A stretch of 64,000 bases of DNA from K189A clade bacterium. Lineage in GTDB: Bacteria > Pseudomonadota > Gammaproteobacteria > Pseudomonadales > Azotimanducaceae. The notes below the pieces were generated by a model that saw only the letters and a list, made by a program, of their open reading frames with translations, was not told the origin of the DNA and did no database searches. Location: contig QXZU01000186.1 in the NCBI GenBank assembly GCA_009886205.1, positions 24,043-88,042 on the forward strand. The letters run 5' to 3'. The translations under genes and the position numbers were made by a program. This document shows, in pieces, positions 6,218-59,659 of this stretch (positions are counted from its first letter, which is position 1; every line of letters begins with the position of its first letter).

Positions 6218-6390
6218 ATGGCCCGCCCACTGACGTATAAACCTTCGATTTGCGCGGTTTTGCGCTGACTGAAGGCAATCTGACGCAAACTTCGGTCCAC
6301 ATTTAGCCCCTCTTAGACTACCCTACGCACCCAGAAAATTATTTTTTGAGCGGCAGCCTTAATTGCCCCTCCTGAAACCAAGGAATTAAA

Positions 6391-42558: not shown

Positions 42559-43734
42559 ATGCTCAACATCATGAGTAAGAGCAAACGCACCGCCGAGCGC
42601 GCGACTGACCCTGCCCAAAAGCATGCCAAAACAGGGCACAAAGCCTCCGCCAAGAAAGGCCGAATTGTCGCGCTAGAACACACCTCAACGGTGCTGAAAG
42701 ATAACCCTTTAGGGGATCCATTCGAGCGTCCCGTGAACGTTTATTTACCAGCCGCCTATGACACGCAACCGAACAAGCGCTTCCCAGTGCTATTTGATCT
42801 AGCCGGCTTTACGGGCAGCGGGCTTGGGCATCTGAACTGGCGTAATTTTGATGAAAACCTGCCAGAGAAACTGGATCGACTCATTGCCACTAAGGCCATG
42901 ACTCCGGTGATTGTAGTCTTCCCAGATTGTTTTACTTGTTTAGGCGGCAACCAGTACATTAATTCAAGCGCCATAGGGCAGTACGCAGATTATCTGAACC
43001 TGGAACTTATTCCTTTTGTAGACGAACAACTCAGAACCCTTGCCTCAAGAGAACATCGCGGTTGTTTTGGTAAATCATCTGGCGGCTACGGTGCACTGCG
43101 AATGGCTATGGACTACCCGCAATATTGGGGCGGTATCGCCAACCACTCTGGCGATGCCTACTTCGATTTTGTCTACAAAGCCGAATGGCCTGAGGTACTC
43201 ACTCATTTACAAAAGTACGCACAACCTCAGCTCAAAGAAGGTCTACGTAAAAGTGTCTCTGGCCAAGCCCACCCGGGGCAAGATGACGGTCGTATTAGGC
43301 GCTTTCTTGAAGACATTTGGTCACGCAATCCGAACGGACACGACCCACTGGCAGGCAAGGACATAATGGCGTTGATGTTGGTGGCCATGGCCGCAAGCTA
43401 TGACACTGATCCAACCTTGCCCAATGGGTTTGGCCTACCCTTCGACCTTGAAAACGGCAAGTTTTTGCAAACTCGCTGGCGCAATTGGCTACGCAACGAT
43501 CCTATCCACATGAATGCGCGGCAGAAGAAAAACTTAAAAACCCTGAAAGGTATTTTTATCGACTGCGGTTGGCGCGACCAATTTCACATCCACTATGGCA
43601 GCCGTCAGCTCTCTGAGGTTTTGCAGGAAGCCGGGGTAGAACATCGCTACGAGGAATTCAATGGCACCCACTCCGGGGTAGACCATAGATTAGACACCAG
43701 CCTGGCGTTTTTGGCTAAGAAGCTGAAAGGTTAG
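42559..43734 (+). CDS. Alpha/beta hydrolase, Fes/enterochelin-esterase-like
   Basis: VYLPAAY, RFPVLFDLAGFTG, GGNQYINS, nucleophile elbow GKSSGGYG, IDCGWRD and EEFNGTH. Start may be 42570. Confidence 0.85.
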   Translation: MLNIMSKSKRTAERATDPAQKHAKTGHKASAKKGRIVALEHTSTVLKDNPLGDPFERPVNVYLPAAYDTQPNKRFPVLFDLAGFTGSGLGHLNWRNFDENLPEKLDRLIATKAMTPVIVVFPDCFTCLGGNQYINSSAIGQYADYLNLELIPFVDEQLRTLASREHRGCFGKSSGGYGALRMAMDYPQYWGGIANHSGDAYFDFVYKAEWPEVLTHLQKYAQPQLKEGLRKSVSGQAHPGQDDGRIRRFLEDIWSRNPNGHDPLAGKDIMALMLVAMAASYDTDPTLPNGFGLPFDLENGKFLQTRWRNWLRNDPIHMNARQKKNLKTLKGIFIDCGWRDQFHIHYGSRQLSEVLQEAGVEHRYEEFNGTHSGVDHRLDTSLAFLAKKLKG

Positions 43735-43853: not shown

Positions 43854-44798
43854 TTAGTCAGCCACTAAAACCGCCTTTAGCATGTCGTCTAGCGGGGTCA
43901 ATTTTTCCATACCCAAATGCTTCATGGTCGGCTCTGGATCAATGTTGTCGTCATGATCGAGTACACCCAACATGGCCGTAGTGATGGGCGGATTGCCGAG
44001 AAATTGCTCTAATGCACCCGCCACTAGGTAGCCTAGGCCAATAGGCAGCGAGACAAAAATTGGCGTATTCGCAAAAAGATCTGCACCGCGTTGGTAAAGC
44101 TCCTTGCGGGTCAGGCATTCTGGCCCGCCCAAGTCATACCCGCCCTCTAACTGCTGTGTTGACGCCGCACATATCGCACTGACCACATCCCCAGCGTATA
44201 TAGGCTGCTCCAGGCTTTCGCCGCGGAAAACAAAGCCATTCTTACCGGACGCCCGACGCCGCAATGCGCCGCTTGCATAATCACCTTCGCCCAACACCAT
44301 AGGCACCCGCAACGTGCAGGCACCGGGGCCACCAGCAGCAAGAATGGCTTCGGCTTGGCCTTTTGAGGCTAAGCAAGCATTTGCCGCATCGGGTTTAGAC
44401 CCGACAATAGAAAGGTAAGTTATATGTTTTACGCTGGACGTGGCTAGCGCTTCAACAAGCGCAGCACAGCTGTCTTCGTGGGCCGCCTGATAGGTGGCAA
44501 AGGCAGTTGCTTTCAAAATACCAACAAGGTGCACGGCTCTATCACAACCCTGAGCCGCAGCTTGGAGTTGCGCAACGTTGGTGTAGTCCGCCACCACCAA
44601 AGACAATCGCGCACTATCTGCCTCAGACAAGTCTCCTTCAGGGGATGTCAGCTGCCGCAACGTTTGCAATGCACTCTCACTACGCACTACCGCCACAATG
44701 TTGTCCCTAGTAGACTGCAACAAATGCACAATTAGACGCCGGCCTAAGTTACCATTGGCGCCTGTTATCAACCATTTACCTAATACTTCTGAGACCAT
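43854..44798 (-). CDS. NAD(P)-binding Rossmann protein (atypical SDR, NDUFA9/epimerase-like)
   Basis: LITGANGNLG, VHLVGIL, YLSIVG, SKGQAE and QPIYAGDV motifs. Confidence 0.82.
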   Translation of the reverse strand: MVSEVLGKWLITGANGNLGRRLIVHLLQSTRDNIVAVVRSESALQTLRQLTSPEGDLSEADSARLSLVVADYTNVAQLQAAAQGCDRAVHLVGILKATAFATYQAAHEDSCAALVEALATSSVKHITYLSIVGSKPDAANACLASKGQAEAILAAGGPGACTLRVPMVLGEGDYASGALRRRASGKNGFVFRGESLEQPIYAGDVVSAICAASTQQLEGGYDLGGPECLTRKELYQRGADLFANTPIFVSLPIGLGYLVAGALEQFLGNPPITTAMLGVLDHDDNIDPEPTMKHLGMEKLTPLDDMLKAVLVAD

Positions 44799-44829
44799 GC
44801 TTTTTCTAAACCTTAATGCAATTTCAAGT

Positions 44830-45327
44830 ATGAACAGCCAATTTGATGCAACACCTTACAGCGAGCCAGCCAAAATACGCAATTACCCAAATGGGGTCAT
44901 GGCGCTATTGTGCACGCTTTTGCTCAGCGCATGTGGGTCACCCATTGGCCCTATCGCTGGCGGCAGCCTAGAGGGCGAGCTAATGCCTTGGCCAACAGAT
45001 TGGGCCATTGCGGAAGACTGTGAAAATGTTTTGTTAGAAACCAACCCTGCCAAACCCTACTCAGTGACCATCTGGGGTGTGGGCGATGAGCAAAATTTTT
45101 ATGTTGCTGCAGGCAAACAAAGCAACCGTTGGGCTCAGAATATTGAAAAGAACCCCCAAGTTCTTTTAGACGTAGACGGCAAACTTTATGCGGCTAACGC
45201 ACAGCGCGTAGTAGAGCGCGCCGAGTTTGAAAAAATCAGACAGGCTTTCGTTGCAAAATACGATTTCGACCCAGACCCTGACTTTAAGGCAGAGGGCGCA
45301 CTTTACCGCTTAGTTCCGGCCCAGTAG
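44830..45327 (+). CDS. Lipoprotein with split beta-barrel (DUF385/DUF2255, FDOR-like) domain
   Basis: Lipobox LLSAC and RWAQNIEKNPQVLLDVDGKLYAANAQRV, resembling deazaflavin/flavin split barrels. Start uncertain (44830 or 44898). Confidence 0.55.
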   Translation: MNSQFDATPYSEPAKIRNYPNGVMALLCTLLLSACGSPIGPIAGGSLEGELMPWPTDWAIAEDCENVLLETNPAKPYSVTIWGVGDEQNFYVAAGKQSNRWAQNIEKNPQVLLDVDGKLYAANAQRVVERAEFEKIRQAFVAKYDFDPDPDFKAEGALYRLVPAQ

Positions 45328-45900: not shown

Positions 45901-47112
45901 TTATTGTTTGCCGGCTATGGCGTAAGCATGGGCCTTAAACTCGTGACTGAACGGGTGCCAAAATCCTGGCATACGCTGAGTCAAGCAAAAGCCAGTAAGG
46001 TCAGCTTCCGGCGCCATCCAGCTGTGGGTACCGGCCATGCCGCCCCAGTGATACTCACCTTGCGCACCAGCCGGGTCACCTGCCTGCAAATTCTCTTTCA
46101 GCGCAAAGCCCAGACCAAAAACCGTGCCCGGCATGGCCCACATGGGAAATGCAACACTCACCCCTTCTGCTAATTGATTGGTTCGCATCAAAGCCAATGT
46201 TTCATCCTTTAGAATCCGCTGACCGTTCCATTCACCACCGTTCACTAGCATCTGCAAAAATGCAACGTAGTCGGATACTGTAGACGCCAAACCGCCACCG
46301 CCACTTAACCATTTGCGCTGCTGATTATATTGGCCCGCAATAGGGTCATCGACTTTCACCAATCCTGGAGCCATAGGTTTAAAGATATCTGTTGGCGCGT
46401 ACATTGTGGTGAATCGAGAGGTTTTTTCTGGCGGTACCCAGAAATCGGTATCGACCATGGCTAAAGGAGTAAATATGTTGTCACGCAAAAATTCATCAAA
46501 CTTTTGTCCAGACAGCACCTCAACCAAACGCGCGCATACATCGGTGGCCACGGAGTAGCGCCAGCTGGTGCCTGGCTCATAAGCCAACGGCAGTTTTGCA
46601 ATCTCTGCGCAAAATTCTTCTAGATCGAGACTGAAGTCACCCAGTACGTTAATAGTCTTGTTATAGGCTTGATCGACTACTGAGTCTGGCTCAATGAAGC
46701 CGTAACTTAAGCCCGCGCTGTGACTTAAAATGTGCTTTATTAGGATAGGGTTTTTCGCCGCGACAACATCGCCGGCTGAACTGGCGTTTGCGGTGAGTAC
46801 TTGCATGTCGGCAAAATCTGGCATGAACTTACCTAACGGATCATCTAACTTAAAATGACCTTGTTCGTAAAGCATCATCAGAGCCACTGATGTGACCAAC
46901 TTAGTGCTGGAGTACATGCGATAAATCGCATCTTCCTGCAGCGGCGATTTGTCCTCTAGATTCATGTACCCAAACGTTTTGTAGTCAACGATCTTGGTAC
47001 CCTGCATGACCAATGTGGCGCAACATGACAGAATATTTTCGTCCACATAAAAACGCATGCGGTCATACATCGGGGAAAAATCTAGCCCAGTACTTTCTAT
47101 AGTTAACGCCAT
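45901..47112 (-). CDS. Serine hydrolase of beta-lactamase fold (EstB/class C-like)
   Basis: IYRMYSSTKL (SxxK), LLSH-type segment ILSHSAGL, WRYSVATD and SGGGGLASTVSDY; no signal peptide. Confidence 0.9.
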   Translation of the reverse strand: MALTIESTGLDFSPMYDRMRFYVDENILSCCATLVMQGTKIVDYKTFGYMNLEDKSPLQEDAIYRMYSSTKLVTSVALMMLYEQGHFKLDDPLGKFMPDFADMQVLTANASSAGDVVAAKNPILIKHILSHSAGLSYGFIEPDSVVDQAYNKTINVLGDFSLDLEEFCAEIAKLPLAYEPGTSWRYSVATDVCARLVEVLSGQKFDEFLRDNIFTPLAMVDTDFWVPPEKTSRFTTMYAPTDIFKPMAPGLVKVDDPIAGQYNQQRKWLSGGGGLASTVSDYVAFLQMLVNGGEWNGQRILKDETLALMRTNQLAEGVSVAFPMWAMPGTVFGLGFALKENLQAGDPAGAQGEYHWGGMAGTHSWMAPEADLTGFCLTQRMPGFWHPFSHEFKAHAYAIAGKQ

Positions 47113-47189
47113 AAGGTAGCCCTCTATCTCTTTCTTTAACTTTATCCTGCAAGCCCAAAGCTTACCACGGGCAATTTTTCTAATCGCCT

Positions 47190-47221
47190 AGTCAGCTCAG
47201 TCTTAACAACTGAGTCTGACT
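47190..47221. terminator. 12-bp bulged hairpin, possible terminator of the M20 gene
   Basis: AGTCAG-CTCAGT-N7-ACTGAG-T-CTGACT; no clear U-tract. Confidence 0.4.
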
Positions 47222-47275
47222 GGCTAAAACGCGTTGAATATACCGTGGCCAATTGGCCCGCACAGCTAAATGTCA

Positions 47276-48688
47276 CTACGGTTGCGCAGCAAAATCTACT
47301 AACAGTTGATATAATGTGCGAACGCCTTTCTTGAGGTTTTCTACCCCTAAACGTTCATCGTTGCCGTGCACCCCAGAGAATTCTCCCGGCGCATAAACAA
47401 AGGGCGAATAGCCATAACTGGTAATGCCCAGATCACGGAAAAAGTGCGAGTCGGTAAAGCCGCCCGCGACGGTGGGAATAACTGGCGCGCCAAATGCTTG
47501 CTCGGATACCTTAACAATGGCCTTGTACAGTGACGTGTCTGTGCGGCTGATCGCCGGAGTGAAGCCCATGATGCGCTCAATAGTTATCTGCTTGTCGTTG
47601 ATAATATTATTCAAATCAACAAGAAAGGCCTCGGGGTCTTGATCTGGCAGAAGTCGGCAATCTAACTCTGCATGGGCTTGTGCTGGCACAACATTGATCT
47701 TGCTGCTGCCTTCTAAGGTGGTTATTGAGCAAGTGTTACGCAACAACGCATGACCACCGGGATTATTCAATTTCAGGCCCAGCAGATAATCAGGATTTTC
47801 TACCGCCTTAGATAAGTTGGCAAAATTGGAGCGATCGGCGCCAGATTGATAGGGCGCTAAGCCTTCAAACATTTGCGCTACTGGAGCAATCACATTCACC
47901 GGGAATTCGGTTTCACTAACGCGTTTCAAACCACGGATAAGGCGCGTAACTGACGTTTGCATTTGTGGCGCAGAACCATGACCGGGCTTACCCAATGCGG
48001 TTAACCGCAACCAGAGGGGCACCTTTTGTGTGACCTCTACCATGACCGCAATGTCCTCACCAAAGCTGCGTCCTGAACCGCCTTCATTGAGTACGTAGCC
48101 AACATTGGCAAAAATGTCAGGCCGATTTTCAATGAGCCAGCCAGCGCCAAAAAAACCACCCGCCTCTTCGTCTGCGGTAGCGACAAAAAGAATGTCTCTA
48201 TTGAGTTTTAGCCCACTATCCGCCAATGCCAAGAAAGCCTGCAAATGTGCAATGCCTAAACCTTTGGTATCAATGGCCCCACGCCCATATATATAGCCGT
48301 TGGCGACGTCGCCAGATAACGGATCTACAGTCCAAAAATTTAGATCCGCTGGCACCACATCAATATGGTGAAGCAGCACTAGTGCAGGTTTCTTGTTGCC
48401 GTCCTTATCTGCAGTGCCTTCCAACTTGGCCCAGAGATTGCCTCGCCCCTTGGCTGATTCAGCGGATTCATAGGCAATGCCGGCATCATCGAGCAACTTA
48501 GATAAGTAGGCTACTCCTCGATATTCATTACCCGGTGGATTAACGGTGTCAATTTTTAGGTACTGGGAAAGTCGAGGCACTGCCTCCTCAGCATAAGTTG
48601 CAACATCTGCTTTGACGCCTTGCATAAGGCCTAAAGACACCGCTAAAACCATCAAACTCTTCAACATCACGCTAATTTTGCGCCTCAT
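47276..48688 (-). CDS. Exported M20/M25/M40 family metallopeptidase/amidohydrolase
   Basis: Signal peptide, DTVNPPGNE, HHIDVVP, GRGAIDTKG, DEEAGG, GFTDSH and HGNDER motifs. Start set to ATG 48688. Confidence 0.9.
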   Translation of the reverse strand: MRRKISVMLKSLMVLAVSLGLMQGVKADVATYAEEAVPRLSQYLKIDTVNPPGNEYRGVAYLSKLLDDAGIAYESAESAKGRGNLWAKLEGTADKDGNKKPALVLLHHIDVVPADLNFWTVDPLSGDVANGYIYGRGAIDTKGLGIAHLQAFLALADSGLKLNRDILFVATADEEAGGFFGAGWLIENRPDIFANVGYVLNEGGSGRSFGEDIAVMVEVTQKVPLWLRLTALGKPGHGSAPQMQTSVTRLIRGLKRVSETEFPVNVIAPVAQMFEGLAPYQSGADRSNFANLSKAVENPDYLLGLKLNNPGGHALLRNTCSITTLEGSSKINVVPAQAHAELDCRLLPDQDPEAFLVDLNNIINDKQITIERIMGFTPAISRTDTSLYKAIVKVSEQAFGAPVIPTVAGGFTDSHFFRDLGITSYGYSPFVYAPGEFSGVHGNDERLGVENLKKGVRTLYQLLVDFAAQP

Positions 48689-48770
48689 ACTTATTCCTAA
48701 TGAAAAAATGACTACCAATTAAGATGCACAAGTCTCCATAATCTGGCAACAAAAATTACCGGGGAGAAAT

Positions 48771-49817
48771 ATGCGGATCTCTACATTGATGAGTTATGCA
48801 GGTGGGTTTAAAGAGGCGGTTGCAGAAATAAAGGCGCTAGAGAAGGCTGGGCTAGACGTTGTATGGGTGCCAGAAGCCTATTCCTTTGATGCGCCAACAG
48901 CCATGGGTTATCTGGCTGCGGAAACTGAGCGCGTGATTATTGCCTCTGGCATTCTGCCAATTTACACACGCACACCAAGCCTGTTAGCGATGACCGCCGC
49001 AGGGCTAGATTATTTGTCTGATGGCCGCGCAATGCTGGGCCTGGGCGCTTCAGGCCCCCAAGTGATTGAGGGTTTTCACGGCGTACCCTACAACGCACCA
49101 GTTGCTAGAACCCGTGAAGTGATAGAAATTTGCCGCAAAGTCTGGAAGCGCGAAAAAGTTCAGCACCTTGGCAAGCACTACCAAATTCCACTGCCTCAAA
49201 ATGAAGGCACAGGATTAGGCAAACCATTGAAGCTGATTAACCACCCTGTGAAAGACGACATTCCAATTGCCATTGCATCCTTAGGGCCTACCAGTGTTGC
49301 GGCTACTGCCGAACTGGCCGACGCTTGGTTGCCAGCGTTCTACACGCCTGAAGCCGCTCGCGCTGTTTGGGGCGAGTCATTAGACCAAGGTAATGCCAAA
49401 AGAGACGGTGGCAGAGCGCCGCTAGACATTTTTGCCGGCGGCAGTGTGGCCATTGGCGACGGTATGGAAGAACTAAGAGAGCGTGCTCGTCCTGGCGCAG
49501 CGTTATATATCGGCGGCATGGGCGCTCGGTCAAAGAACTTCTATAACGACATTTTTGCCAAGAGTGGTTACGTGGATGAAGCGAAGGTCATTCAAGACCT
49601 TTACTTGGCCGGTGATAAGAAAGCTGCTGAAGAGGCCATTCCGGCTGACTATCTTGCCAAGAGTTCATTGATCGGACCTGAGGGGTTTGTTAAAGAGCGC
49701 CTTTACGCGTTAAGAGAATCTGGCGTGACGTCACTGAACGTCAACTTTGCAGGGCAAAGTGCTGAAGAACGCGTGGCCCAGTGTGAGAAGCTGCGCAACC
49801 TTGTCGACTCTATGTAG
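48771..49817 (+). CDS. LLM-class oxidoreductase, F420-dependent Rv3520c-like family
   Basis: WVPEAYSFDA, ASGILPIYTRTP, AMTAAGLDYLSDGR and LGLGASGPQVIEGFHG match the motif pattern I associate with that family. Confidence 0.8.
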   Translation: MRISTLMSYAGGFKEAVAEIKALEKAGLDVVWVPEAYSFDAPTAMGYLAAETERVIIASGILPIYTRTPSLLAMTAAGLDYLSDGRAMLGLGASGPQVIEGFHGVPYNAPVARTREVIEICRKVWKREKVQHLGKHYQIPLPQNEGTGLGKPLKLINHPVKDDIPIAIASLGPTSVAATAELADAWLPAFYTPEAARAVWGESLDQGNAKRDGGRAPLDIFAGGSVAIGDGMEELRERARPGAALYIGGMGARSKNFYNDIFAKSGYVDEAKVIQDLYLAGDKKAAEEAIPADYLAKSSLIGPEGFVKERLYALRESGVTSLNVNFAGQSAEERVAQCEKLRNLVDSM

Positions 49818-49865
49818 GTTCAAACGGTAGGTTAAAGCGACAGGTTAGAGCTGTAGGTAAGGCTT
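49814..49865. repeat. Degenerate 13-bp tandem repeat x4 starting at the LLM stop codon
   Basis: GTAGGTTCAAACG / GTAGGTTAAAGCG / ACAGGTTAGAGCT / GTAGGTAAGGCTT. Confidence 0.7.
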
Positions 49866-49890
49866 GCCAGCCAGGCCGATAAAAAACGAT

Positions 49891-50694
49891 TCAATGAAGG
49901 CGAATCAAGCCCTCTTGAACCGTTGACGCCACCAGCTCTCCCTGCTCAGTGAAAATATTCCCTCGGGTATATCCTCTGGCTTCCGACGTACTGGGGGTAT
50001 CGATGGCATAAAGCAGCCATTGATTCACATCTACTGGCCGATGAAACCACATGGCGTGGTCAAGGCTTGCTACCTGCATTGCCTCGCGCTTGAAGCGTCC
50101 TCTATGCGGCAGGCGCGCAGTACCCAACAATACGTTATCTGACTCATAAACCAACAAACATGCCGCTAACGCGGGGTCTTCAGGCACAGGCCCAGTACTT
50201 TTAAACCAAACAAACTGCTCTGGCGGCTGTGGCGTTTCTGATTGCAAGCGGCGAAATTCATGACGCCAAGTAACAAATGGCGCGTCAAATAAGGCCTTAG
50301 GGATTTTTGCCTCTAACGGCGGCTGCAAATCCGGCATGGCGATCTGATGACTTAAGCCAGATTCCGGCACTTGAAAAGACGCATCCATATTAAATATGGC
50401 TTCCCCGCGCTGGGTCACCAATATGCGCCGAGCTGAAAACGAACCGCCATCTCGAGTGCGTTCCACGCGAATAATCGCTGGCACAGACGGATCTCCCGGG
50501 CGCAAAAAATATCCATGCAGCGAATGCACAAAGCGGTCGGAGGCTACCGTTTTTATGCCCGCCATGAGTGCCTGAGACAAAATCTGGCCGCCAAACAACC
50601 TTTTGGTTCTGGTTGGCGGGTGTTGCGCGCGAAATATGTCTTCCTCAATTCGCTCAATGTCGAGCAAGTGCAAGAGTTCAGCTAACTTGTTGAT
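49891..50694 (-). CDS. tesB: Acyl-CoA thioesterase II
   Basis: RLFGGQILSQAL, HSLHGYFLRPGD, RDGGSFSAR, ASLDHAMWFH and VASTVQEG motifs. Start is ATC 50694 (good SD) or TTG 50673. Confidence 0.93.
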   Translation of the reverse strand: MNKLAELLHLLDIERIEEDIFRAQHPPTRTKRLFGGQILSQALMAGIKTVASDRFVHSLHGYFLRPGDPSVPAIIRVERTRDGGSFSARRILVTQRGEAIFNMDASFQVPESGLSHQIAMPDLQPPLEAKIPKALFDAPFVTWRHEFRRLQSETPQPPEQFVWFKSTGPVPEDPALAACLLVYESDNVLLGTARLPHRGRFKREAMQVASLDHAMWFHRPVDVNQWLLYAIDTPSTSEARGYTRGNIFTEQGELVASTVQEGLIRLH

Positions 50695-50784
50695 GAATTA
50701 TTCCTCTTCTTCGCGAACACTTAGCCCCGTTAACTCGTACTGACAACTCGTACTAGCTGTTAATCCTGACCTTTAGTCCTGCTT

Positions 50785-51180
50785 TTAGTCCTGGCAATAA
50801 GGGCCGTAAAATGGGTCTTGGGCTAACGTGGTTCTGCGCCCTCTGGTGTCAATCATATCAAGATAGTTCCACAGCAAATTACAGGACAAATCTGTCTGAT
50901 CTTCTGGATTACCTAGCGCGTCAAAAATAACCTCGGTGTCTTCACTGATCAGCAGGTCTTCAGGAATTGAGCACAACATGTCTAAAGCATCACGCACGGC
51001 GGCGTCCACCACCTGCATTTCGGCTTTTGCTTGCAGAGACCAAAGCCACATTGCTTCGCTGTCGATACTGCCCTGTCGCCATAATTCTACTTGTTGCAAC
51101 ATTTTTACTCGATCCAGCACTTCCATAACTTGTCTCCACAAGGCTGTTGTCCCAGCGGATGCCAGAACGTTATTATCCAA
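50785..51180 (-). CDS. Hypothetical acidic helical protein, 131 aa
   Basis: Fills an otherwise empty gap; AGG 7 nt upstream of a TTG start; no family recognised. Confidence 0.6.
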   Translation of the reverse strand: MDNNVLASAGTTALWRQVMEVLDRVKMLQQVELWRQGSIDSEAMWLWSLQAKAEMQVVDAAVRDALDMLCSIPEDLLISEDTEVIFDALGNPEDQTDLSCNLLWNYLDMIDTRGRRTTLAQDPFYGPYCQD

Positions 51181-51212
51181 GCCTATTCTAAAACGATATT
51201 GGCGGAGAACCT

Positions 51213-53213
51213 ATGCAAAGACTGAGAAATACTCCAGCGTCTTTACCATTGATGCCGATGATACGGGTGAGCCTGCTTGCGCTGGCTTCACTTTGGGTGC
51301 TCACAGGGTGCCAAAAACATGAGTCCGCAAGCCCAGAGTCTATAGTTGAAGTTGAGGGCGACGTAGCAATAGTCGGTGACTGGCAAACTTTATTTCCAGA
51401 GGGCGAAACCACCTGCTCCGATGGCTCTCCCTACAAATTTTTCGTTCGCCAAGGCGCGTCCGACAAGCTTCTAATATATCTCCAAGGCGGTGGCGCCTGC
51501 TGGTTTAGGCAGACCTGCGATCCGGAAATGACACCCAGTTACACCCTTAATGTGGCAAACACCTCTTACCCCTATTTTGGCATTTTCAATTTCGCAAAAG
51601 CGGATAACCCATTTAAAGATCACACTGTAGTGTACGCGCCCTATTGCACCGGCGATGTGCATATCGGGGCCAGCGATACAATATATCCGCCTGTTGAAGA
51701 GGGACAAAAAGATTTAGTGATTCGCCACCAAGGCCGAGCCAATATGCAAGCGGTGTTAGAGTGGACTTACGCCAACGTTAAAAGCCCCAAAAACATATTT
51801 GTCACTGGCTCATCTGCCGGCGCTATACCCTCGCCCTTTTATGCTTCTCTGATAGCCGACCATTACCCAGATGCCCGAGTGGGTCAATTGGGCGATGGCG
51901 CCGGTGGCTACCGGCGCATGAATCAAGCAACTCGGCCCCACGAACAATGGGGCATGTTTAATTTCATTAAGGACGAAAAGGGCTTCGAACATCTGAATTC
52001 ACATGACATGAATTACGAGTCCTTATATATCGCTGCAGCCCAACAGCACCCAGAAATTCTTTTCGCTGAATACGATGCCGCAGAAGACGCCGTACAAAAA
52101 AGGTACCTTGCCCTAAGCGGACAGAAGAATGTTCAGCTTTTGGACTCGCTGAAAGCAAATCATCAGGACATCCGCGCAGAGGCGGATAATTTTCGCAGCT
52201 TTATAGGCGGCGGCACTTCCCACACTGTATTGCAGAAACCGGAATTCTATACGTGGGCTGCAAATGGCACAGGTATTAGGGACTGGGTGGCTCATCTTGA
52301 AAACTTTACGGATGTAGAAGATGTGTTGTGTGTTGATTGCACTCGTGAAGGCTATGTTGGCGTAACCATTGACCCTGCACTACAAGCCCTTTGGGATAGC
52401 TGGGAAGACCCAGCGACCCAATATGTAAAGCCCTTCAAGATTTTCGACAACGTTTACTATGTTGGCATCGACTGGGTTTCCGCCTATCTGATAGATACCG
52501 GCGATGGCCTAGTACTCATTGATAGCCTGTATGGAAAGTGGGTGCCGCTGTTGATGAACAACATTCGAGCAGTGGGCTTTAATCCAAGTGACATCAAGTA
52601 TGTCATTAACACCCATGGACACTTTGACCATGCTGGCGGCTCGGCCTACTTACAAAAAGTCCATGGCGCAGAAATAGTCATGACCGCAGAGGACTGGGCA
52701 ATAGCCAGAGCAGAACCGGAGCTGCCACAGTTTTACATGCCTCAACCCAATGTGGATATTGTCGCTAAAGATGGCGACACAATTACCTTAGGTGATAATA
52801 CCTTCGAACTTTTCAATACCCCGGGTCACACCACCGGTGTGTTATCTATTCGTTATACGGTGCGCGAAGGCGACAACGAATATACCGCTATGACACTGGG
52901 CGGTGTTGGTCTGAATTTCTCCGGTGTGGCGCGCACTGAGACCTACATAAAGAGCTACGAGCGCCTGCAATCTATTCAAAACGGCACTTCCGTGAGCCTG
53001 CCAAATCACCAAGAGATGGGCAAAGTGTTTGCACGTCGGGACTTAGCGGCCGCTCAGCCAAGTGGGGCGGCAAATCCATTCGTTAACCCAGATAGTTATA
53101 AACAAGATCTGAGCGCTTTCTTAACTGCGGCAAAGGTTAAGTTGGCACAGGAAAAAGCCGGCACCGCGCCAACAGAACTCGAAGCTTTGAAAAATGCCAT
53201 AACGGACTCTTAG
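51213..53213 (+). CDS. Lipoprotein fusion: pectin-acetylesterase/Notum-like esterase plus subclass B3 metallo-beta-lactamase-fold domain
   Basis: Lipobox VLTGC; esterase motifs CSDGS, GGGACW, PYCTGDVH, GSSAG, ED and SHT; MBL motifs PFKIFDNVYYVG, THGHFDHAGG, PGHT, PNH and NPFV. Confidence 0.85.
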   Translation: MQRLRNTPASLPLMPMIRVSLLALASLWVLTGCQKHESASPESIVEVEGDVAIVGDWQTLFPEGETTCSDGSPYKFFVRQGASDKLLIYLQGGGACWFRQTCDPEMTPSYTLNVANTSYPYFGIFNFAKADNPFKDHTVVYAPYCTGDVHIGASDTIYPPVEEGQKDLVIRHQGRANMQAVLEWTYANVKSPKNIFVTGSSAGAIPSPFYASLIADHYPDARVGQLGDGAGGYRRMNQATRPHEQWGMFNFIKDEKGFEHLNSHDMNYESLYIAAAQQHPEILFAEYDAAEDAVQKRYLALSGQKNVQLLDSLKANHQDIRAEADNFRSFIGGGTSHTVLQKPEFYTWAANGTGIRDWVAHLENFTDVEDVLCVDCTREGYVGVTIDPALQALWDSWEDPATQYVKPFKIFDNVYYVGIDWVSAYLIDTGDGLVLIDSLYGKWVPLLMNNIRAVGFNPSDIKYVINTHGHFDHAGGSAYLQKVHGAEIVMTAEDWAIARAEPELPQFYMPQPNVDIVAKDGDTITLGDNTFELFNTPGHTTGVLSIRYTVREGDNEYTAMTLGGVGLNFSGVARTETYIKSYERLQSIQNGTSVSLPNHQEMGKVFARRDLAAAQPSGAANPFVNPDSYKQDLSAFLTAAKVKLAQEKAGTAPTELEALKNAITDS

Positions 53214-53265
53214 GGAATTACACTGAACGCTATATGGAACAACGACTCAGCAGCGGAACATACAC

Positions 53266-53838
53266 ATGAAGCTTAGGTATTTTGCCTTAATCACTTGGCT
53301 TGTCCTGTTCAGTGGCAACACTATTATTGCTTCAACTATTGCAGCAACGAACGATGTTGCAGAAAAATATGCAGGTGACTGGGTCGTTAATGTAGAAGAA
53401 ACAGATTTGTTACGCGAAGAACTTGATGAAAAGCCGACTGTTCTCGGCGGGCCGGGCAAGGTCAGCATCTCCGTTTTGGGCCTGCCCATTCCCACCGGGC
53501 GCTCTAAAGTTGGCCCGCAGTCACCCTTAAGTGCAGCAGATCCTGCACTTTTACGCTCGCGCACAATGTCCATATCTGTTGCTGCAAACAAGATTAGTAT
53601 TCAATACCCAGAAGTCGGTGGTAAAGACGCAAAAGAGGTTCTGCGTAAAGGCCACTATCGCGGACGAGACAGTAAATGGTCGCAAAAAAAGATTGAGCAA
53701 AAATATAAGACCACTGAACGCAAAGTGACTAAAACTTGGTCCATACGTGGCGATGGCAGACTATTAGCCGTGGTGACGATTAAAAATCCAGGCTCAAAAA
53801 AGCGTACTTTCAGCCGCGTGTTTGATAGATCCCAATAG
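53266..53838 (+). CDS. Secreted hypothetical protein
   Basis: Signal-peptide-like N-terminus, AGDWVVN.. lipocalin-like start and a basic beta-rich C-terminal half. Confidence 0.7.
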   Translation: MKLRYFALITWLVLFSGNTIIASTIAATNDVAEKYAGDWVVNVEETDLLREELDEKPTVLGGPGKVSISVLGLPIPTGRSKVGPQSPLSAADPALLRSRTMSISVAANKISIQYPEVGGKDAKEVLRKGHYRGRDSKWSQKKIEQKYKTTERKVTKTWSIRGDGRLLAVVTIKNPGSKKRTFSRVFDRSQ

Positions 53839-54024
53839 TCAGCCAACTGTCTTTATTGGCGCAGCGAGAAGTCGCTGCTCGCGAATATCCTATTCGAGAT
53901 CCAGCGACGGTGGAACATAAGCGCTGCGGCATTTAGCCATACGCTTGGGCAGATATTACGCAAAATACCCCTGAAGGCATTGAACTTGGGCGGCGAGGCT
54001 TTTAAGGTCACTCTCCCGTTCAAT

Positions 54025-54438
54025 ATGCATCAATTGATCATGGCTTTTAAATTGCCCCCTGAAATTTGCGAGTTCCGATTTATTCTGGGATCAGGCCCAG
54101 GAGGTCAGCATGTCAATAAAACAGCCAGCACTGTAGAACTTAGGGTTACTGTCAGTAAGCTGCAACTACCACCGGCACCTTTAGCACGACTTAAAGAACA
54201 GCAGGCCAAGCGCATTAATAAACTTGGAGAGCTGGTTATTCAATCTGGCAATCACCGATCTCAACTGATGAACCGCCAGGAAGCTGTATCGAGAGTAGAA
54301 AAATTCATAGACGAGGCATTGATCCGGCCCAAGTCACGGGTAGCAACGCGGCCGACACTCGCTTCAAAGAGACGGCGGCTAGAAGGCAAGAAAGTACGCG
54401 GCAGCGTGAAAAGCCAGCGGAAGAAGCCTAGTTGGTAA
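54025..54438 (+). CDS. arfB: Alternative ribosome rescue peptidyl-tRNA hydrolase ArfB
   Basis: GSGPGGQHVNKTAS, HRSQLMNR and basic tail RVATRPTLASKRRRLEGKK. Start 54025 or 54040. Confidence 0.93.
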   Translation: MHQLIMAFKLPPEICEFRFILGSGPGGQHVNKTASTVELRVTVSKLQLPPAPLARLKEQQAKRINKLGELVIQSGNHRSQLMNRQEAVSRVEKFIDEALIRPKSRVATRPTLASKRRRLEGKKVRGSVKSQRKKPSW

Positions 54439-54576
54439 GCTTGGCGGGCAGGTTAGATAGATTGGATGGAATAGATGAGTAGTTAGGCAGTGGGCGTAAT
54501 AGCCAACAAGAACCGTTAGAAAAAGGTGAGTCCCAAATTGAACCCACCCAATAGGGTGTTAAATTGAATGCGTTGT

Positions 54577-55251
54577 CTAAAGGGCTGCTTTTTCCTTCGC
54601 AACCAAAAAGTCTACAACCTTCAGCATATCTTCATTAGAGCCAGCCATACGCCCATCTACTCGATACTTACCATTCACAACCATAGTTGGCACACCCGTA
54701 ATACCGTAAGCGCTGCCTTTGGCTCGAGCCTGCTGCACTCTACTTTTCACCGAAAAAGCAGAATATGCTTTGCTGAAATCCAGTGCGCTTACATTCGCAT
54801 GCTCAGCAAAGAGCTCCGCTAGCAGCCGCTCATCGCGAATATCTAGCCGATCTATGTGAATGGCTTCAAACAGAGGTTCGTGCATCTGATCGCCAACACC
54901 CAGCGTTTCTGCGGTGTAAAAGGCTTGGGCCATAAGGCTCCAATCCGATGAAAATACCGCCGGGACGCGTTTGAACTCTACACCGGCTGGCTTAGTTTGC
55001 TCCCAACGGCCCAGCATTGGATCAAAGCTATAGCAGTGGATACACAGATAACCGAACACCTCGACCACTTCCACTTGGTCTGTTAACCCGGTGCTCACTG
55101 GCACGCTGATGGCTTCATAGTGAACGCCTTCAACATACGCTTCGCCAGCAATAGTCGCTGGCAGAAAAAACGCTGCCAACAACAACAGACCGGCCTGCAT
55201 AGCACCCATAATTGTCTTCGTTTGCATCTGGAATAAATTACTTATCTGCAT
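54577..55251 (-). CDS. dsbA: Thiol:disulfide interchange protein DsbA
   Basis: EVFGYLCIHCY (CxxC), FKRVPAVF and GVPTMVVNGKY (cis-Pro); next to cytochrome c4. Confidence 0.92.
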   Translation of the reverse strand: MQISNLFQMQTKTIMGAMQAGLLLLAAFFLPATIAGEAYVEGVHYEAISVPVSTGLTDQVEVVEVFGYLCIHCYSFDPMLGRWEQTKPAGVEFKRVPAVFSSDWSLMAQAFYTAETLGVGDQMHEPLFEAIHIDRLDIRDERLLAELFAEHANVSALDFSKAYSAFSVKSRVQQARAKGSAYGITGVPTMVVNGKYRVDGRMAGSNEDMLKVVDFLVAKEKAAL

Positions 55252-55293
55252 ATCTGAACCCCGAAATAGTTAACTAAGGGCCTAAGTAGGCGC

Positions 55294-55929
55294 TTAGTGT
55301 AGGCCGCTAATGTAATCAGCGAGAATAGCAATTTGGCCATCGCTCAAACCTGAAGCAACACCGCGCATCATATTGCCGTATGCGTCACCAGTGCCTCTTC
55401 TGCCTTCTCGATAATCGGTCAATTGCGCAATGGTATAACCCACAGACTGGCCGCTGATAGCTGGGAAACCAGCCTGAGCATTGCCCGCACCGTTTGGTCC
55501 GTGGCACGCCGCACATGCCGCTACACCCTTGGCAATAACGCCGCCTTTGTAGATACCTTCAGCTGCTTTGATGTCTTCATCACTGCCCGTAGCTTCAAAA
55601 TGCTTCGCTGGCAATGACGCGTAGTACGCCCCAAGGTCAGCCAAATCCTGCTCAGACTTACCAATAAGCTGCGCACTCATAAGAGCAACATTACGCTCCC
55701 CTGACTGGAACATCTGCAATTGGCGAGTGAGGTAAACCTCATTTTGTCCGGCCAAATTTGGATAAGTTGGGTCAATGGCTGTTGCGCCGTCTTGTCCGTG
55801 ACACGCGGCACAAGTAACAGCTTGTGCTTGGCCTGCAGCTACATCACCAGCGGCGATAGCTGCGCTGCTGAAAAAGCTTAAAAGAATAGAAATCGTTGTT
55901 ATTTTTGCAATGCTTGTGCGAACACTCAT
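55294..55929 (-). CDS. Cytochrome c4
   Basis: Signal peptide and two CAACH motifs, YPNLAGQ, FPAISGQ; divergent from yihA as is typical. Confidence 0.92.
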   Translation of the reverse strand: MSVRTSIAKITTISILLSFFSSAAIAAGDVAAGQAQAVTCAACHGQDGATAIDPTYPNLAGQNEVYLTRQLQMFQSGERNVALMSAQLIGKSEQDLADLGAYYASLPAKHFEATGSDEDIKAAEGIYKGGVIAKGVAACAACHGPNGAGNAQAGFPAISGQSVGYTIAQLTDYREGRRGTGDAYGNMMRGVASGLSDGQIAILADYISGLH

Positions 55930-56189
55930 GTATTCAAATTCCGTAGTTTACTTAGCGGTACAACCTTTGATGCGGCTAATTCGTGTCATAAACGCGATGT
56001 TCATTAACGCGCCGGCTAAAGGCAGAAATTTAATCTCCAAAGCTTTCACAATTGTTAAGTTCAATTCCAAACGTCCACGCAGTTTAAGGATGTTACACTG
56101 GCGAATGACCGCCAATAGTTGCAACCGACCCTCTTGCGCTGCCGGTCAAAATCAAAACCAAGCTCAGAGACCGCGGATTATATATCAAG

Positions 56190-56894
56190 ATGACAAAAAA
56201 AGAGTCACTACCTGAACGACTTGAAGCCACCTTTCTTACCAGTGCGCCGGATTTAAAGCGATGTCCCCCTGGTTTTGGCGCCGAAGTGGCCTTTGCCGGA
56301 CGATCCAATGCAGGTAAATCTTCTGTTTTGAACCAAATCTCTGGCAATAAAAGGACTGCAAAGGTCAGTAAAACCCCTGGGCGTACCCAATTATTGAACT
56401 TTTTTGACATCAGAACCGGTGGCCGGATTGTCGATTTGCCCGGATATGGCTATGCAAAGGCGGGCAAGGCAGCGCAGAGAACTTGGCAAAAGTCGGTCAA
56501 TCACTACTTGTCCTATCGCAACCACTTAGCCGGCATCATCTTAGTGATGGATATTCGCCATCCAAACCAAGCTTTTGATCTGGAAATGCTGGAATGGAGC
56601 ACAAAAAGCGACATTCCAATTCATATACTTCTCAACAAAGCGGACAAACTGAGCGGCGGCGCGCAAAAACAAATTCTGCAAAAAATTCGCAGCAGTTATA
56701 GCGATTATCCTTATGCCACCGTGCAGTGTTTCTCCGCCATGCGTGGCTTGGGCAAGGAGGAGCTGATTACGAAGCTGCTGGAACTACTGGCCACGCCAAT
56801 AGAGGGCGACGAAATAGGCGCGCTAGACGAATTAGACGAGAACCAAGAGCATCGAATAGAGGATTTGCCTAACGAAACCCAGGAAGAAATTTAG
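56190..56894 (+). CDS. yihA: Ribosome biogenesis GTP-binding protein YihA/EngB
   Basis: GRSNAGKSS, SKTPGRT, DLPGYG and NKADK motifs. Confidence 0.96.
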   Translation: MTKKESLPERLEATFLTSAPDLKRCPPGFGAEVAFAGRSNAGKSSVLNQISGNKRTAKVSKTPGRTQLLNFFDIRTGGRIVDLPGYGYAKAGKAAQRTWQKSVNHYLSYRNHLAGIILVMDIRHPNQAFDLEMLEWSTKSDIPIHILLNKADKLSGGAQKQILQKIRSSYSDYPYATVQCFSAMRGLGKEELITKLLELLATPIEGDEIGALDELDENQEHRIEDLPNETQEEI

Positions 56895-56902
56895 CGCACA
56901 AG

Positions 56903-59659
56903 CTAGTGCGCTTCATCCCAGTTCATACCTACGCCGGTTGCTACAGTTAGAGGAACCGATAGCTCAACCGCCCCGCACATGCGCTGCACTACTTCGTCGG
57001 TGAGTGCCTGCAAATCCTCTTCACTGACTTCAAAAACCAATTCATCGTGCACCTGCAAAATCATGCGCGCATCTAAATCTGCGCCGGCCAACCAGCCTTG
57101 TACAGAGCTCATTGCTAACTTAATGATGTCCGCTGCGGTGCCTTGCATAGGTGCATTAATCGCGGTGCGTTCCGCTGCTTGGCGGCGCGGCACTGCTTTT
57201 GCGTTTATTTCTGGCAGGTACAACCTGCGACCAAAAACTGTTTCAACATAGCCCTGCTCCGCGGCAAGCGCTTTAGTTTCTTCCATGTAGTGCAACACGC
57301 CGGGGTAGCGGGAGAAATATCGGTCAATATAGTCTTGGGCTAAGGTTCTGGAGATACTCAATTGCTTACCTAAACCAAATGCAGACATGCCATAAATCAG
57401 ACCAAAGTTGATGGCCTTGGCGCTGCGCCGCTGATCATCAGACACCGCTTCTGGTGCGACATCAAATACTTCACTGGCGGTTGCTCTATGAATATCTTGG
57501 TCCTCAGCAAATGCCGTAGTCAGACCTTTGTCACCAGACAAATGCGCCATTATCCGCAGCTCAATTTGCGAGTAGTCTGCGGCCATAATTTTGTATCCCG
57601 CTGGGGGCACAAATGCCTGTCGCACGCGCCGCCCCTCTGCATTACGAATAGGAATGTTCTGCAGGTTAGGATCTGAAGAGGACAAACGACCTGTTGCCGT
57701 TACTGCTTGGTGATAGGAGGTGTGAATACGCCCCGTCTGCGCGTTAATGTCTAAGGGCAACTTATCAGTATAGGTAGATTTGAGTTTTGCCAAACCGCGA
57801 TAATTGAGTAAGGTTGCGGGCAACTCATAATCTCGAGCCAAATCTACCAACACGGCCTCAGCCGTAGACGGCTTGCCCCCTGGGGTTTTCTTTAAAATCG
57901 GCAGGCCTAACTTTTCATAGAAAATTGTCTGCAACTGCTTTGGGCTGTCTAGGTTAAAAGTTTCACCCGCTTGCTCCCAAGCTTGCTCAACCAATTCTTT
58001 CAGACGGTCGGCCAACTCAGCGCCATGCTGCTTAAGCATACGTCCATCTACCAGCGCCCCCTGACGCTCTACTTGAGAGAGTATCGGCACCAACGGCATA
58101 TCAATATTGGTGAAGACATGTAGCAGAGTAGGCTCTGCTTGAATTTGCGGATATAGGCATTCATGTAGTTGCAGCGTGATGTCTGCATCTTCAGCAGCAT
58201 ATTCACCAGCGGTTTCTAGAGGTACTTCGTTAAAGGTCAATTGCTTAGCGCCCTTGCCAGCAACATCTTCGAAATGAATGGTTTTTCTATCTAGATAAAA
58301 TTCTGCTAACGCATCCATATTGTGGCGCGTTGCTACACTGTTCAAAACATAGGATTCAAGCATGGTGTCATAAAGTGGTCCGGCGAAGCTGACACCGTAA
58401 CGGGCTAATACGCTCATATCGTATTTGATATTTTGGCCGATCTTGCCAATGTTAGGGTTCTGTAACAGTGGCGTTAATGCGGCTAATGCCTGATCGAGAG
58501 AAAGCTGGTCAGGCGCGCCCGGATAATCATGGGCCACTGGCAAATAGGCTGCTCTTCCAGCCTTGGCGGAAAATGAGAAGCCAACCAGTTCCGCCAGCAT
58601 ATAATTCACGCTGGTGGTTTCTGTATCAAAGGCAAAGGTTTCAGCGGCTGACAGTTCCTCAATCCAAGAATTAAGTGCTTCAACGGTGGTGATGACTTCA
58701 TAGTCTCGGGGATATTCAACCGCCGGTACAGTGGCGGCGGCGGGTTCGGCTTTTGACGTCTTTGTAGCCTTGCTGTCACCGCGCTCTAATTCATCTGACC
58801 AAGCTTTGAACTCAAATTCCTTGAAGTGCTTTTGCAGCGTATCCACATCAGGAGGGGTAGCCTGCAACTGCTCAATGGACAGCTCTAACTCTACATCGCA
58901 CTTAATTGTGGTGAGCGCTTTGGATAAAGGCAACTGCTCTAAGCTGGCCCGTAAATTTTCACCAATCTTGCCTTTGATCTCATCGGCTTTGGCAATGACT
59001 TCATCTAACGTGCCATATTCGTTTAGCCATTTGGTAGCTGTTTTGGGGCCAACTTTCGGCACGCCAGGAATGTTGTCCGCGGTGTCCCCCATTAACGCTA
59101 AGTAATCAATGATCTGTTCGGGCGTGACGCCAAATTTGTCGATCACACCCTGACGGTCCATGGTGGTTTCGGTCATGGTATTTACAAGGGTTACGTGATC
59201 ACTCACCAATTGCGCCATGTCTTTGTCACCTGTGGAGATCACTGTGGCGCGCTTGGCCGCGCTGGCTTGAGTGGCATAAGTGCCAATAACATCATCTGCC
59301 TCTACACCCTCTACACAAATCAACGGCAATCCCATAGCTTTTATCAGCTCATGAATGGGCGCAATTTGCTCACGTAAATCGTCAGGCATGGACGCTCGAT
59401 TAGCCTTGTATTGTGCATACAAGTCATCGCGAAATGTTTTGCCCGGCGCGTCAAAAACCACCGCGACTAAACTGCCGGGGTAATCACGGTCCAACTTACG
59501 GATCATGCTAATAACACCACGAATAGCACCTGTAGGGTGGCCACTAGAATTACTCAAGTCGGGGAGGGCGTAATAGGCTCTAAATAAATAGGAAGAACCA
59601 TCAACTAGCACTAATGGTGCTTGGTGTTCGTTGGGAATAGACGGTAGATTATCCGACAC
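56903..59659 (-). CDS. polA: DNA polymerase I
   Basis: 5'-3' exonuclease (LVDGSSYLFRAY), 3'-5' exonuclease (FDTET) and polymerase motifs (DYSQIELR, AKAINFGLIYG, QVHDEL). Confidence 0.98.
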   Translation of the reverse strand: MSDNLPSIPNEHQAPLVLVDGSSYLFRAYYALPDLSNSSGHPTGAIRGVISMIRKLDRDYPGSLVAVVFDAPGKTFRDDLYAQYKANRASMPDDLREQIAPIHELIKAMGLPLICVEGVEADDVIGTYATQASAAKRATVISTGDKDMAQLVSDHVTLVNTMTETTMDRQGVIDKFGVTPEQIIDYLALMGDTADNIPGVPKVGPKTATKWLNEYGTLDEVIAKADEIKGKIGENLRASLEQLPLSKALTTIKCDVELELSIEQLQATPPDVDTLQKHFKEFEFKAWSDELERGDSKATKTSKAEPAAATVPAVEYPRDYEVITTVEALNSWIEELSAAETFAFDTETTSVNYMLAELVGFSFSAKAGRAAYLPVAHDYPGAPDQLSLDQALAALTPLLQNPNIGKIGQNIKYDMSVLARYGVSFAGPLYDTMLESYVLNSVATRHNMDALAEFYLDRKTIHFEDVAGKGAKQLTFNEVPLETAGEYAAEDADITLQLHECLYPQIQAEPTLLHVFTNIDMPLVPILSQVERQGALVDGRMLKQHGAELADRLKELVEQAWEQAGETFNLDSPKQLQTIFYEKLGLPILKKTPGGKPSTAEAVLVDLARDYELPATLLNYRGLAKLKSTYTDKLPLDINAQTGRIHTSYHQAVTATGRLSSSDPNLQNIPIRNAEGRRVRQAFVPPAGYKIMAADYSQIELRIMAHLSGDKGLTTAFAEDQDIHRATASEVFDVAPEAVSDDQRRSAKAINFGLIYGMSAFGLGKQLSISRTLAQDYIDRYFSRYPGVLHYMEETKALAAEQGYVETVFGRRLYLPEINAKAVPRRQAAERTAINAPMQGTAADIIKLAMSSVQGWLAGADLDARMILQVHDELVFEVSEEDLQALTDEVVQRMCGAVELSVPLTVATGVGMNWDEAH

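Follow-up and report, generated by a model that had tools for sequence, protein, structure and literature searches.

Metallo-beta-lactamases (MBLs) of subclass B3 are mostly environmental enzymes, and their native roles are debated. Two B3 enzymes of marine origin, MIM-1 and SAM-1, hydrolyse beta-lactams in vitro as well as homoserine lactones, and a native role other than resistance has been proposed for them (PMC7392888). Serine esterases of the family of Notum, a palmitoleoyl-protein carboxylesterase, and plant pectin acetylesterases (PAE; Pfam PF03283, CAZy family CE13) share an alpha/beta-hydrolase core with CxDGS, GGGxC and PYCxxDV motifs, a GSSAG nucleophile, a D-x-x-Q acid, a catalytic histidine and several conserved cysteines; their bacterial members appear uncharacterised, and our literature search found no characterised bacterial enzyme of the family. 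Here we describe a gene that joins one domain from each of these families in a single predicted lipoprotein, encoded at 51213..53213 on the forward strand of a 64,000-nucleotide stretch of contig QXZU01000186.1 from a K189A clade bacterium (the window; all coordinates are positions within it). Both domain families are already known, and proteins with the fused architecture are listed in public databases by generic names ('pectin acetylesterase-family hydrolase', 'glyoxylase-like metal-dependent hydrolase'). Literature searches found no publication on a PAE-MBL fusion and no characterised protein of this architecture, as had been supposed in a first-pass annotation made from the sequence alone. 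What is new here is a history most simply read as one fusion followed by multiple losses, a set of sister lipoprotein MBLs, a difference in loop 2 of the zinc domain, and associations with luciferase-like (LLM-class) oxidoreductases and with a secreted protein, hyp190, encoded downstream. The fused protein is predicted, with considerable confidence, to be a real bifunctional hydrolase and not a curated B3 resistance enzyme. Our preferred reading, to which we assign a probability of roughly 0.55, is that it is a lipid-anchored periplasmic two-site hydrolase which scavenges ester-bearing organic compounds and does not serve drug resistance.

The gene encodes 666 amino acids in one frame (51213-53213, stop codon included), with no internal stop or frameshift in the open reading frame (ORF) listing or the translation, and its ATG at 51213 is preceded by a GGAG ribosome-binding site with a spacer of 5 nt. 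The first-pass annotation had read the frame in the same way, as a single uninterrupted chain across the junction, and had suggested a count of homologues combining PF03283 with Lactamase_B (PF00753). A search of 5.8 billion proteins returned 364 relatives, and all 120 of those listed carry both PF03283 and PF00753 in 640-672 amino acids. The possibility of an assembly artefact or of two separate genes is ruled out by the uninterrupted frame together with hundreds of full-length homologues, some of them on closed chromosomes. Purifying selection acts on both halves of the protein, with ratios of non-synonymous to synonymous substitution (dN/dS) of 0.12 for the esterase domain and 0.14 for the MBL domain against a relative of 89% identity, and mean pairwise identity among homologues is 66% and 70% for the two domains, respectively.

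The chain begins with a signal peptide (51213..51311) that ends in the lipobox L-T-G-C, whose context SLWVLTGC fits the pattern [LVI][ASTG][GAS]C after a signal peptide. The lipobox is kept in homologues, and the predicted lipidation site, Cys33 (codon 51309-51311), is invariant across 38 aligned homologues, in agreement with the earlier call of a single-chain lipoprotein. Judged from these features the protein is most likely tethered to the membrane and faces the periplasm. In E. coli, the Lol +2 rule holds that a residue other than Asp after the lipobox Cys predicts sorting to the outer membrane; the +2 residue here is Gln, and by analogy the rule predicts that the fused protein is an outer membrane lipoprotein. 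The tether that follows (residues 34-54, 51312..51374) is probably disordered, with low conservation and a low predicted local distance difference test score (pLDDT): mean pairwise identity over residues 1-54 is 23%, and pLDDT lies below 50 over residues 31-50 of an AlphaFold2 model built on the 38 homologues (mean pLDDT 81, predicted template modelling score 0.80). The junction between the two domains (residues 381-404, 52353..52424) is ordered in this model, with a pLDDT of 84-92 and 50% identity, and includes an N-terminal helix shared with free-standing sister MBLs, the same helix being present in P0283. The model is consistent with the two domains forming one rigid body.

The first domain (residues 55-380, 51375..52352) matches PF03283 with 59.7 bits against a gathering cut-off of 26.6 (residues 66-254). 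This domain was compared with the PDB by sequence profile, the 50 Foldseek matches listed for the whole model being all to MBLs, and a family profile made from 60 relatives of the N-terminal domain matched human Notum with E = 7e-20 over a stretch that begins at CxDGS and extends through the nucleophile in GSSAG. CSDGS lies at residues 68-72, GGGACW at 92-97, PYCTGDVH at 143-150, GSSAG at 199-203 (51807-51821), AAED at 289-292 and GTSH at 334-337. Ser201 (51813..51815) aligns with the nucleophile in the GSSAG of Notum, which we take to be Ser232. Asp292 (52086..52088), the candidate catalytic acid, is nearly invariant in the wider family and lies in a D-x-x-Q motif, D292-A-V-Q295, that corresponds to Notum D340/Q343, while the candidate base His337 (52221..52223, in SHT) aligns weakly with the histidine of the Notum CLSHEII segment, presumably His389. 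None of the three residues varies within the fused clade, and they hardly vary in the wider family. The motifs of the triad in the PAE/Notum family are GxSxG, NxayDxxQ (in plant PAE) and a histidine (PMC5465549). Six cysteines of the domain are also invariant (68, 96, 102, 145, 373 and 376), matching the expectation for an exported protein, and the last two form a C373-x-x-C376 motif (52329..52340) at the end of the domain, beyond which esterase-only relatives terminate within 6-9 residues. These alignments point to a carboxylesterase of the Notum/pectin acetylesterase fold with the putative triad Ser201-Asp292-His337, and so bear out the Notum-like esterase, with its GSSAG nucleophile and Asp and His candidates, of the first-pass annotation; every motif named there, in both domains, is found in the translation where it had been placed. 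In contrast to Notum and the plant pectin acetylesterases, the fused protein is bacterial, anchored as a lipoprotein and equipped with a second catalytic domain. Strong alignment with Notum is confined to the N-terminal two thirds, and the known substrates of these relatives, Wnt and pectin, are both implausible for the fused protein.

The second domain (residues 405-625, 52425..53087) is of the MBL fold and of B3 lineage according to Pfam, NCBIfam and Foldseek. It matches PF00753 with 88.4 bits against a cut-off of 22.7 (residues 422-548) and contains PFKIFDNVYYVG at residues 407-418, THGHFDH at 467-473 (52611-52631), PGHT at 537-540 and PNH at 597-599. In an alignment with BJP-1, H468-G-H470-F-D472-H473 (52614..52631, invariant) corresponds to H116, H118, D120 and H121 in standard class B beta-lactamase (BBL) numbering, and His599 (53007..53009) to the Zn2 ligand H263; His539 (52827..52829) aligns with the Zn1 ligand H196. 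All six zinc ligands (H468/H470/H539 and D472/H473/H599) are invariant in the 38 homologues. BJP-1 is also the closest enzyme by sequence (E = 1e-33), followed by other B3 enzymes, and in a Foldseek search with the model (pLDDT here mostly 85-96 for blocks of 10 residues) BJP-1 matched with E = 4e-24 and a target-normalised template modelling score (TM) of 0.85, the best TM being up to 0.86. Each of the 50 PDB matches listed is either a B3 enzyme or a B3-like protein of the MBL fold, among them BJP-1, Rm3, FEZ-1, SMB-1, L1, AIM-1, MIM-1 and SAM-1. Helices at the C-terminus (residues 626-666, 53088..53210) are found in the free-standing sister MBLs as well. From sequence and fold, we assign the domain to the B3 beta-lactamase lineage and predict that it is a hydrolase with a binuclear zinc site. 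It shares the alpha-beta/beta-alpha fold and the full ligand set with its nearest B3 relatives, BJP-1 (3LVZ), FEZ-1 (1L9Y) and CAR (NF000469), and the N-terminal helix with BJP-1. Identity to the nearest solved B3 structures is 26-30% in the Foldseek alignments, and unlike these enzymes the fused protein is a lipoprotein joined to an esterase, has catabolic gene surroundings and is known from sequence and model.

Membership of the B3 lineage is not equivalent to being a B3 beta-lactamase. The fused protein scores 162.6 bits with the NCBI B3 equivalog model NF033105, under its cut-off of 240, and likewise falls below the cut-offs of the named families CAR (NF000469, 216.6 against 500) and BJP (121 against 600). 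Ten free-standing relatives also score below the curated B3 cut-offs, and where NCBI names them at all it names them 'MBL fold metallo-hydrolase'. The second departure is in loop 2, T561-L-G-G-V-G-L-N-F-S-G571 (52893..52925), in which L562-F569 and G571 are invariant and T561 is conserved in at least 90% of homologues. An ungapped register with FEZ-1 places Gly564, Gly566 and Asn568 at BBL 221, 223 and 225, and fits much better than the HMMER register with BJP-1, which needs a gap of two residues and places Leu562 at 221 and Gly564 at 223. The ungapped register presumably matches L1 too. There is no Ser at BBL 221 in either register, where B3 enzymes have Ser and the fused proteins have Gly in an invariant LGGVGLNF loop; by the same count, FEZ-1 shares the Gly at 223 and the Asn at 225, and these two are thus no departures. 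Ser221 and Ser/Thr223 on loop 2 are substrate-recognition residues in B3 enzymes (PMC7392888). Loss of Ser221 is the sole clear departure in this loop, and turnover of beta-lactams would still be compatible with it. Given the sub-threshold scores and the lack of Ser221, the domain should not at present be filed as a B3 beta-lactamase. The subclass B3 assignment of the first-pass annotation thus stands for the lineage and the HHH/DHH ligand set, but not for membership of the curated B3 or CAR families. There is a lesson here for annotation, in that a complete HHH/DHH motif is alone insufficient to call a resistance gene.

These data bear on the possibility that the fused protein is a dedicated beta-lactam inactivator, in which the esterase would deacetylate 3'-acetoxy cephalosporin-type products and the B3 domain open the ring, shielding the envelope from beta-lactams made by neighbours. 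The B3 fold and full ligand set, the FEZ-1-like Asn at BBL 225, and CAR as best curated family match all fit this proposal, and the periplasm is the right place to protect penicillin-binding proteins. Cephalothin and cefotaxime both bear a 3'-acetoxymethyl group. The substrates preferred by CAR-1 and CAR-2 are cephalothin, cefuroxime and cefotaxime (PMC12434095), and this preference is a slight gain for the proposal. Nevertheless we consider it very unlikely: the scores lie far under the curated cut-offs, Ser221 is replaced by Gly throughout the clade, the MBL half has repeatedly disappeared from proteins that retained the esterase, and the neighbouring genes are catabolic. In contrast to CAR, neither a LysR/AmpR-type regulator nor a mobile-element family was matched among the annotated ORFs of the window. 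Resistance regulators in general were not matched there either, and neither kind is recorded for the genes around the sister MBLs.

A lactonase provides a second possible role for the zinc domain, which would then act in quenching of signals or lactones, on N-acyl homoserine lactones (AHLs) or others, with the esterase cleaving ester-linked signals or side chains. The marine enzymes MIM-1 (6AUF) and SAM-1/MIM-2 (6MFI), which are among the structural matches and likewise belong to an environmental marine B3 lineage, offer a precedent in their hydrolysis of homoserine lactones (PMC7392888); the domain also matches AiiA-type lactonases weakly in sequence (E about 1e-8), and an envelope position would suit action on incoming signals. 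These two marine enzymes are however more distant from the fused domain in sequence (E about 1e-22), and are single-domain enzymes that retain Gln157, Ser221 and Thr/Ser223, whereas the fused protein lacks Ser221. Sequence and fold are much nearer to B3 enzymes than to AiiA, the conserved neighbour clusters yielded no luxI/luxR-type genes, the amide bond of an AHL is not cleavable by an esterase, and the association with LLM and hyp190 genes would be left unexplained. A primary role in quenching therefore appears improbable.

The distribution of the fusion gives information on which of the two activities is central. It was found in 28 GTDB species-representative genomes, closed long-read chromosomes included, and its carriers are all uncultured marine Gammaproteobacteria (OM182, K189A, Ca. 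Azotimanducaceae and metagenome-assembled genomes (MAGs) labelled 'Pseudomonadales'). Only about two representatives in a library clustered at 50% identity are full-length fusions, and the fusion is as such one narrow clade; among 41 relatives it is restricted to the window's own family, where it is patchy, being present in 13 of 29 good genomes. We note that a 4.4-kb fusion-bearing contig (JBLHLU010000328.1) has been placed in a Paraglaciecola psychrophila bin; the fused protein on it groups with the OM182 clade, and the contig is probably mis-binned. In a tree of the MBL domain, one clade with 99% support unites all fused proteins with free-standing lipoprotein MBLs, which is compatible with a single origin of the fusion. 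The tree of the esterase domain has esterase-only proteins nested within the fused group in at least four places, and constraining the fused proteins to one clade is rejected (delta log-likelihood 317, approximately unbiased test p = 0.0007). The esterase-only genes are complete, with genuine stops 6-9 residues past the CxxC motif and unrelated genes thereafter, and a whole-protein search (E <= 1e-20) of the genomes that encode them matched just the esterase half. The simplest history is that a lipoprotein esterase and a lipoprotein MBL fused once, after which the MBL half was lost repeatedly. That the esterase was kept each time implies that it works on its own and supplies the central activity, with the MBL domain as an extra that is useful but can be dispensed with.

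The closest stand-alone relatives in the tree are free-standing lipoprotein MBLs of uncultured Gammaproteobacteria (P0126, P0283, P0286 and P0305), which are 52-57% identical to the fused protein over the whole MBL domain, N-terminal and C-terminal helices included, and share the lipobox and the LGGVGLNF loop, but have no esterase domain. A 'Rosetta stone' check of 52 loci found no free-standing B3-like MBL gene beside esterase-only genes, and the loci of the free-standing MBLs share no synteny with the window. At sister MBL loci (L102, L103 and L105), one flank holds an operon encoding a CoA-transferase III, a thiamine pyrophosphate (TPP)-enzyme, an aminotransferase and an alpha-beta-hydrolase, and the other flank holds major facilitator superfamily (MFS), enoyl-CoA hydratase, LLM and PF00144 genes; at L105 an Abhydrolase_1 gene starts 4 bp downstream of the sister MBL. 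Other architectures also contain the B3-like MBL subfamily: in P0160 (833 aa) it is joined to a PF00144 serine beta-lactamase-fold domain, P0135 (1208 aa) has four tandem MBL domains, and P0351 combines it with a cytochrome-c domain.

Across 29 fused loci the most persistent neighbour is an LLM oxidoreductase, represented in the window by a TIGR03559 protein (48771..49817, forward strand), which is one form of a recurrent pairing of LLM and PAE-like esterase genes. Elsewhere a 374-aa unclassified LLM follows the fusion after 4-100 bp (10 loci), a TIGR03564 LLM and an AhpD-like protein follow it in two loci and are also present at esterase-only loci, and at one locus a TIGR03619 LLM lies 32 bp ahead of it. 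Some 15 loci of Acidobacteriota have a TIGR03620 LLM directly before an esterase-only gene. Taken together, a co-directional LLM gene (PF00296) is present within 2.5 kb in 41 of 75 PAE-like loci, fused or not, and five LLM subfamilies (TIGR03559, TIGR03564, TIGR03619, TIGR03620 and the 374-aa type) are found beside PAE-like genes in two phyla, Gammaproteobacteria and Acidobacteriota. LLM genes are frequent in the window's genome (26 matches in 3 Mb), and single adjacencies are possibly due to chance; five subfamilies in two phyla are harder to dismiss, with the reservation that many loci come from related genomes and neighbour counts are not independent events.

The second associated gene, hyp190, encodes a secreted protein of 190 amino acids with a signal peptide (53266..53838, forward strand) and begins 52 bp downstream of the fusion with no predicted terminator between them. 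A hyp190 gene follows the fusion in 17 of 29 fused loci and is present in 14 of 15 esterase-positive relatives and three others. Neither hyp190 nor hyp131, a small ORF on the other side of the fusion, has a significant Pfam or NCBIfam match. The AlphaFold2 model of hyp190 has a pLDDT of 77, and its 50 listed Foldseek matches are all barrels of the fatty-acid-binding protein (FABP), cellular retinoic-acid-binding protein (CRABP) and NanoLuc type, with weak scores (E = 5e-4 to 1e-2). On this model hyp190 is predicted to be an FABP/calycin-like beta-barrel, and it is a likely partner of the fusion.

These observations are the basis of the preferred reading of the fused protein as a periplasmic scavenger of ester-bearing compounds, within which a small, probably hydrophobic ester is the favoured substrate for four reasons: the likely partner is FABP-like, acyl-CoA and LLM genes lie nearby, the esterase resembles Notum, and polysaccharide-utilisation genes are absent. 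We put forward catabolism of such esters tentatively, at rather less than even odds. In this scenario the esterase would take an acyl or acetyl group off an ester-bearing organic compound in the periplasm, and the zinc domain would hydrolyse another bond, be it of a lactone, lactam or ester, in this compound or one related to it. Presumably co-transcribed with the fusion, hyp190 would, if FABP-like, bind a hydrophobic product or substrate, and products would be imported and then oxidised by the neighbouring luciferase-like oxidoreductases. The first-pass annotation had both domains acting successively on one substrate, for example acetylated beta-lactams; we found no direct support for this.

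Several points weigh against this reading. The scores behind the FABP-like call for hyp190 are weak (E = 5e-4 or worse, TM 0.4-0.6), and the abundance of LLM genes and the relatedness of the genomes mean that inherited synteny may explain part of the LLM association. Any coupling of the fusion to LLM enzymes must be indirect, as these are cytoplasmic and the fused protein is periplasmic. The environmental B3 enzymes MIM-1 and SAM-1 turn over beta-lactams in vitro (PMC7392888), and by analogy the fused MBL domain may do so too. Lastly, PF03283 is a carbohydrate esterase family (CE13), and fusions of PAE-like domains to a sulfatase and to AT3 acyltransferases point to acetylated, decorated glycans.

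This last point leads to a further alternative, in which the fused protein would remove decorations from glycans, the first domain as a CE13-type O-acetylesterase on acetylated (and sulfated) algal or bacterial polysaccharides and the MBL domain by taking off or opening another decoration. Beyond family membership, it draws on a related Pseudomonadales MAG (L068, JAYPYV010000004.1), in which a frame of ~890 aa at about 4300-6990 joins a formylglycine sulfatase of glycan type (PF00884 + SGSH_C, with a CxPxR motif) to the same PAE-like esterase, and on AT3 acyltransferase-PAE and Big_12-PAE fusions elsewhere. As a sulfatase-esterase protein, L068 is an analogue of the MBL fusion, and it hints at sulfated, acetylated substrates. 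The conserved neighbour clusters of the 29 annotated fused loci are, by contrast, devoid of glycoside hydrolases, polysaccharide lyases, SusC/D and TonB-dependent receptors. To our knowledge no MBL-fold enzyme of B3-like lineage acts on glycans. The L068 fusion also prompted us to consider the zinc domain as an MBL-fold sulfatase of the S3 (SdsA1) or S4 (P. carrageenovora AtsA) type. This was rejected, as these enzymes belong to branches other than B3, S4 sulfatases clustering near RNase Z (PMC5066984), and no alkylsulfatase family is among the Pfam or NCBIfam matches of the fused protein. Removal of glycan decorations is consequently an unlikely role, albeit a better candidate than resistance or quenching.

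A broader possibility extends the scavenging reading beyond this one protein. The BJP/CAR-like branch of B3 enzymes may have a native, non-antibiotic substrate that is processed together with a Notum-type esterase, a secreted FABP-like binding protein and LLM enzymes, in what would be an unrecognised periplasmic catabolic module of the widespread uncultured marine Gammaproteobacteria OM182, K189A and Azotimanducaceae. We regard this as doubtful. The first-pass annotation had likewise suggested that the protein may reveal a native role of environmental B3 enzymes outside resistance. If the substrate were indeed of this kind, its discovery would reveal what this branch of B3 enzymes was doing prior to resistance or independently of it, and a catabolic module would account for the esterase-LLM gene pair in two phyla. 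The fusion offers a concrete, cloneable test case for the natural role of B3-type enzymes, and the esterase-LLM pairing is a second testable lead.

From 45901 to 59659, the gene order is a PF00144 protein, an M20 peptidase, the TIGR03559 LLM, acyl-CoA thioesterase II, hyp131, the fusion and hyp190, followed by ArfB, DsbA, cytochrome c4, EngB and PolA, the ORFs from 54577 onward having been named from their translations by eye. Base composition is flat across the fusion region and no mobile-element family was matched among the annotated ORFs, so that the locus gives no sign of being a recently acquired island. The acyl-CoA thioesterase II gene (TesB-like; 49891..50673, reverse strand) is syntenic in the window's subclade. 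Between it and the fusion lies hyp131 (50785..51180, reverse strand), a small, divergent, acidic ORF with no signal peptide, which keeps its place upstream of the fusion in about 17-18 of the 29 fused loci. Its identity is 36-50% in most relatives and 92% in the closest genome, and it is probably a real gene.

Three further ORFs upstream are of note. A 209-aa ORF (44698-45327, forward strand) has weak matches (E about 8e-4) to split-barrel proteins of the PNPOx and F420H2-dependent quinone reductase type, and lies near the 'F420-type' LLM in a gammaproteobacterium. The PF00144 protein, a beta-lactamase-fold esterase (45901-47112, reverse strand), has as its best NCBIfam match AcmB, a methyl acetate hydrolase, at 150 bits and far below the cut-off. 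A PF00756 'putative esterase' (42559-43734, forward strand) is also encoded near the fusion, and this region of the window is unusually rich in hydrolases.

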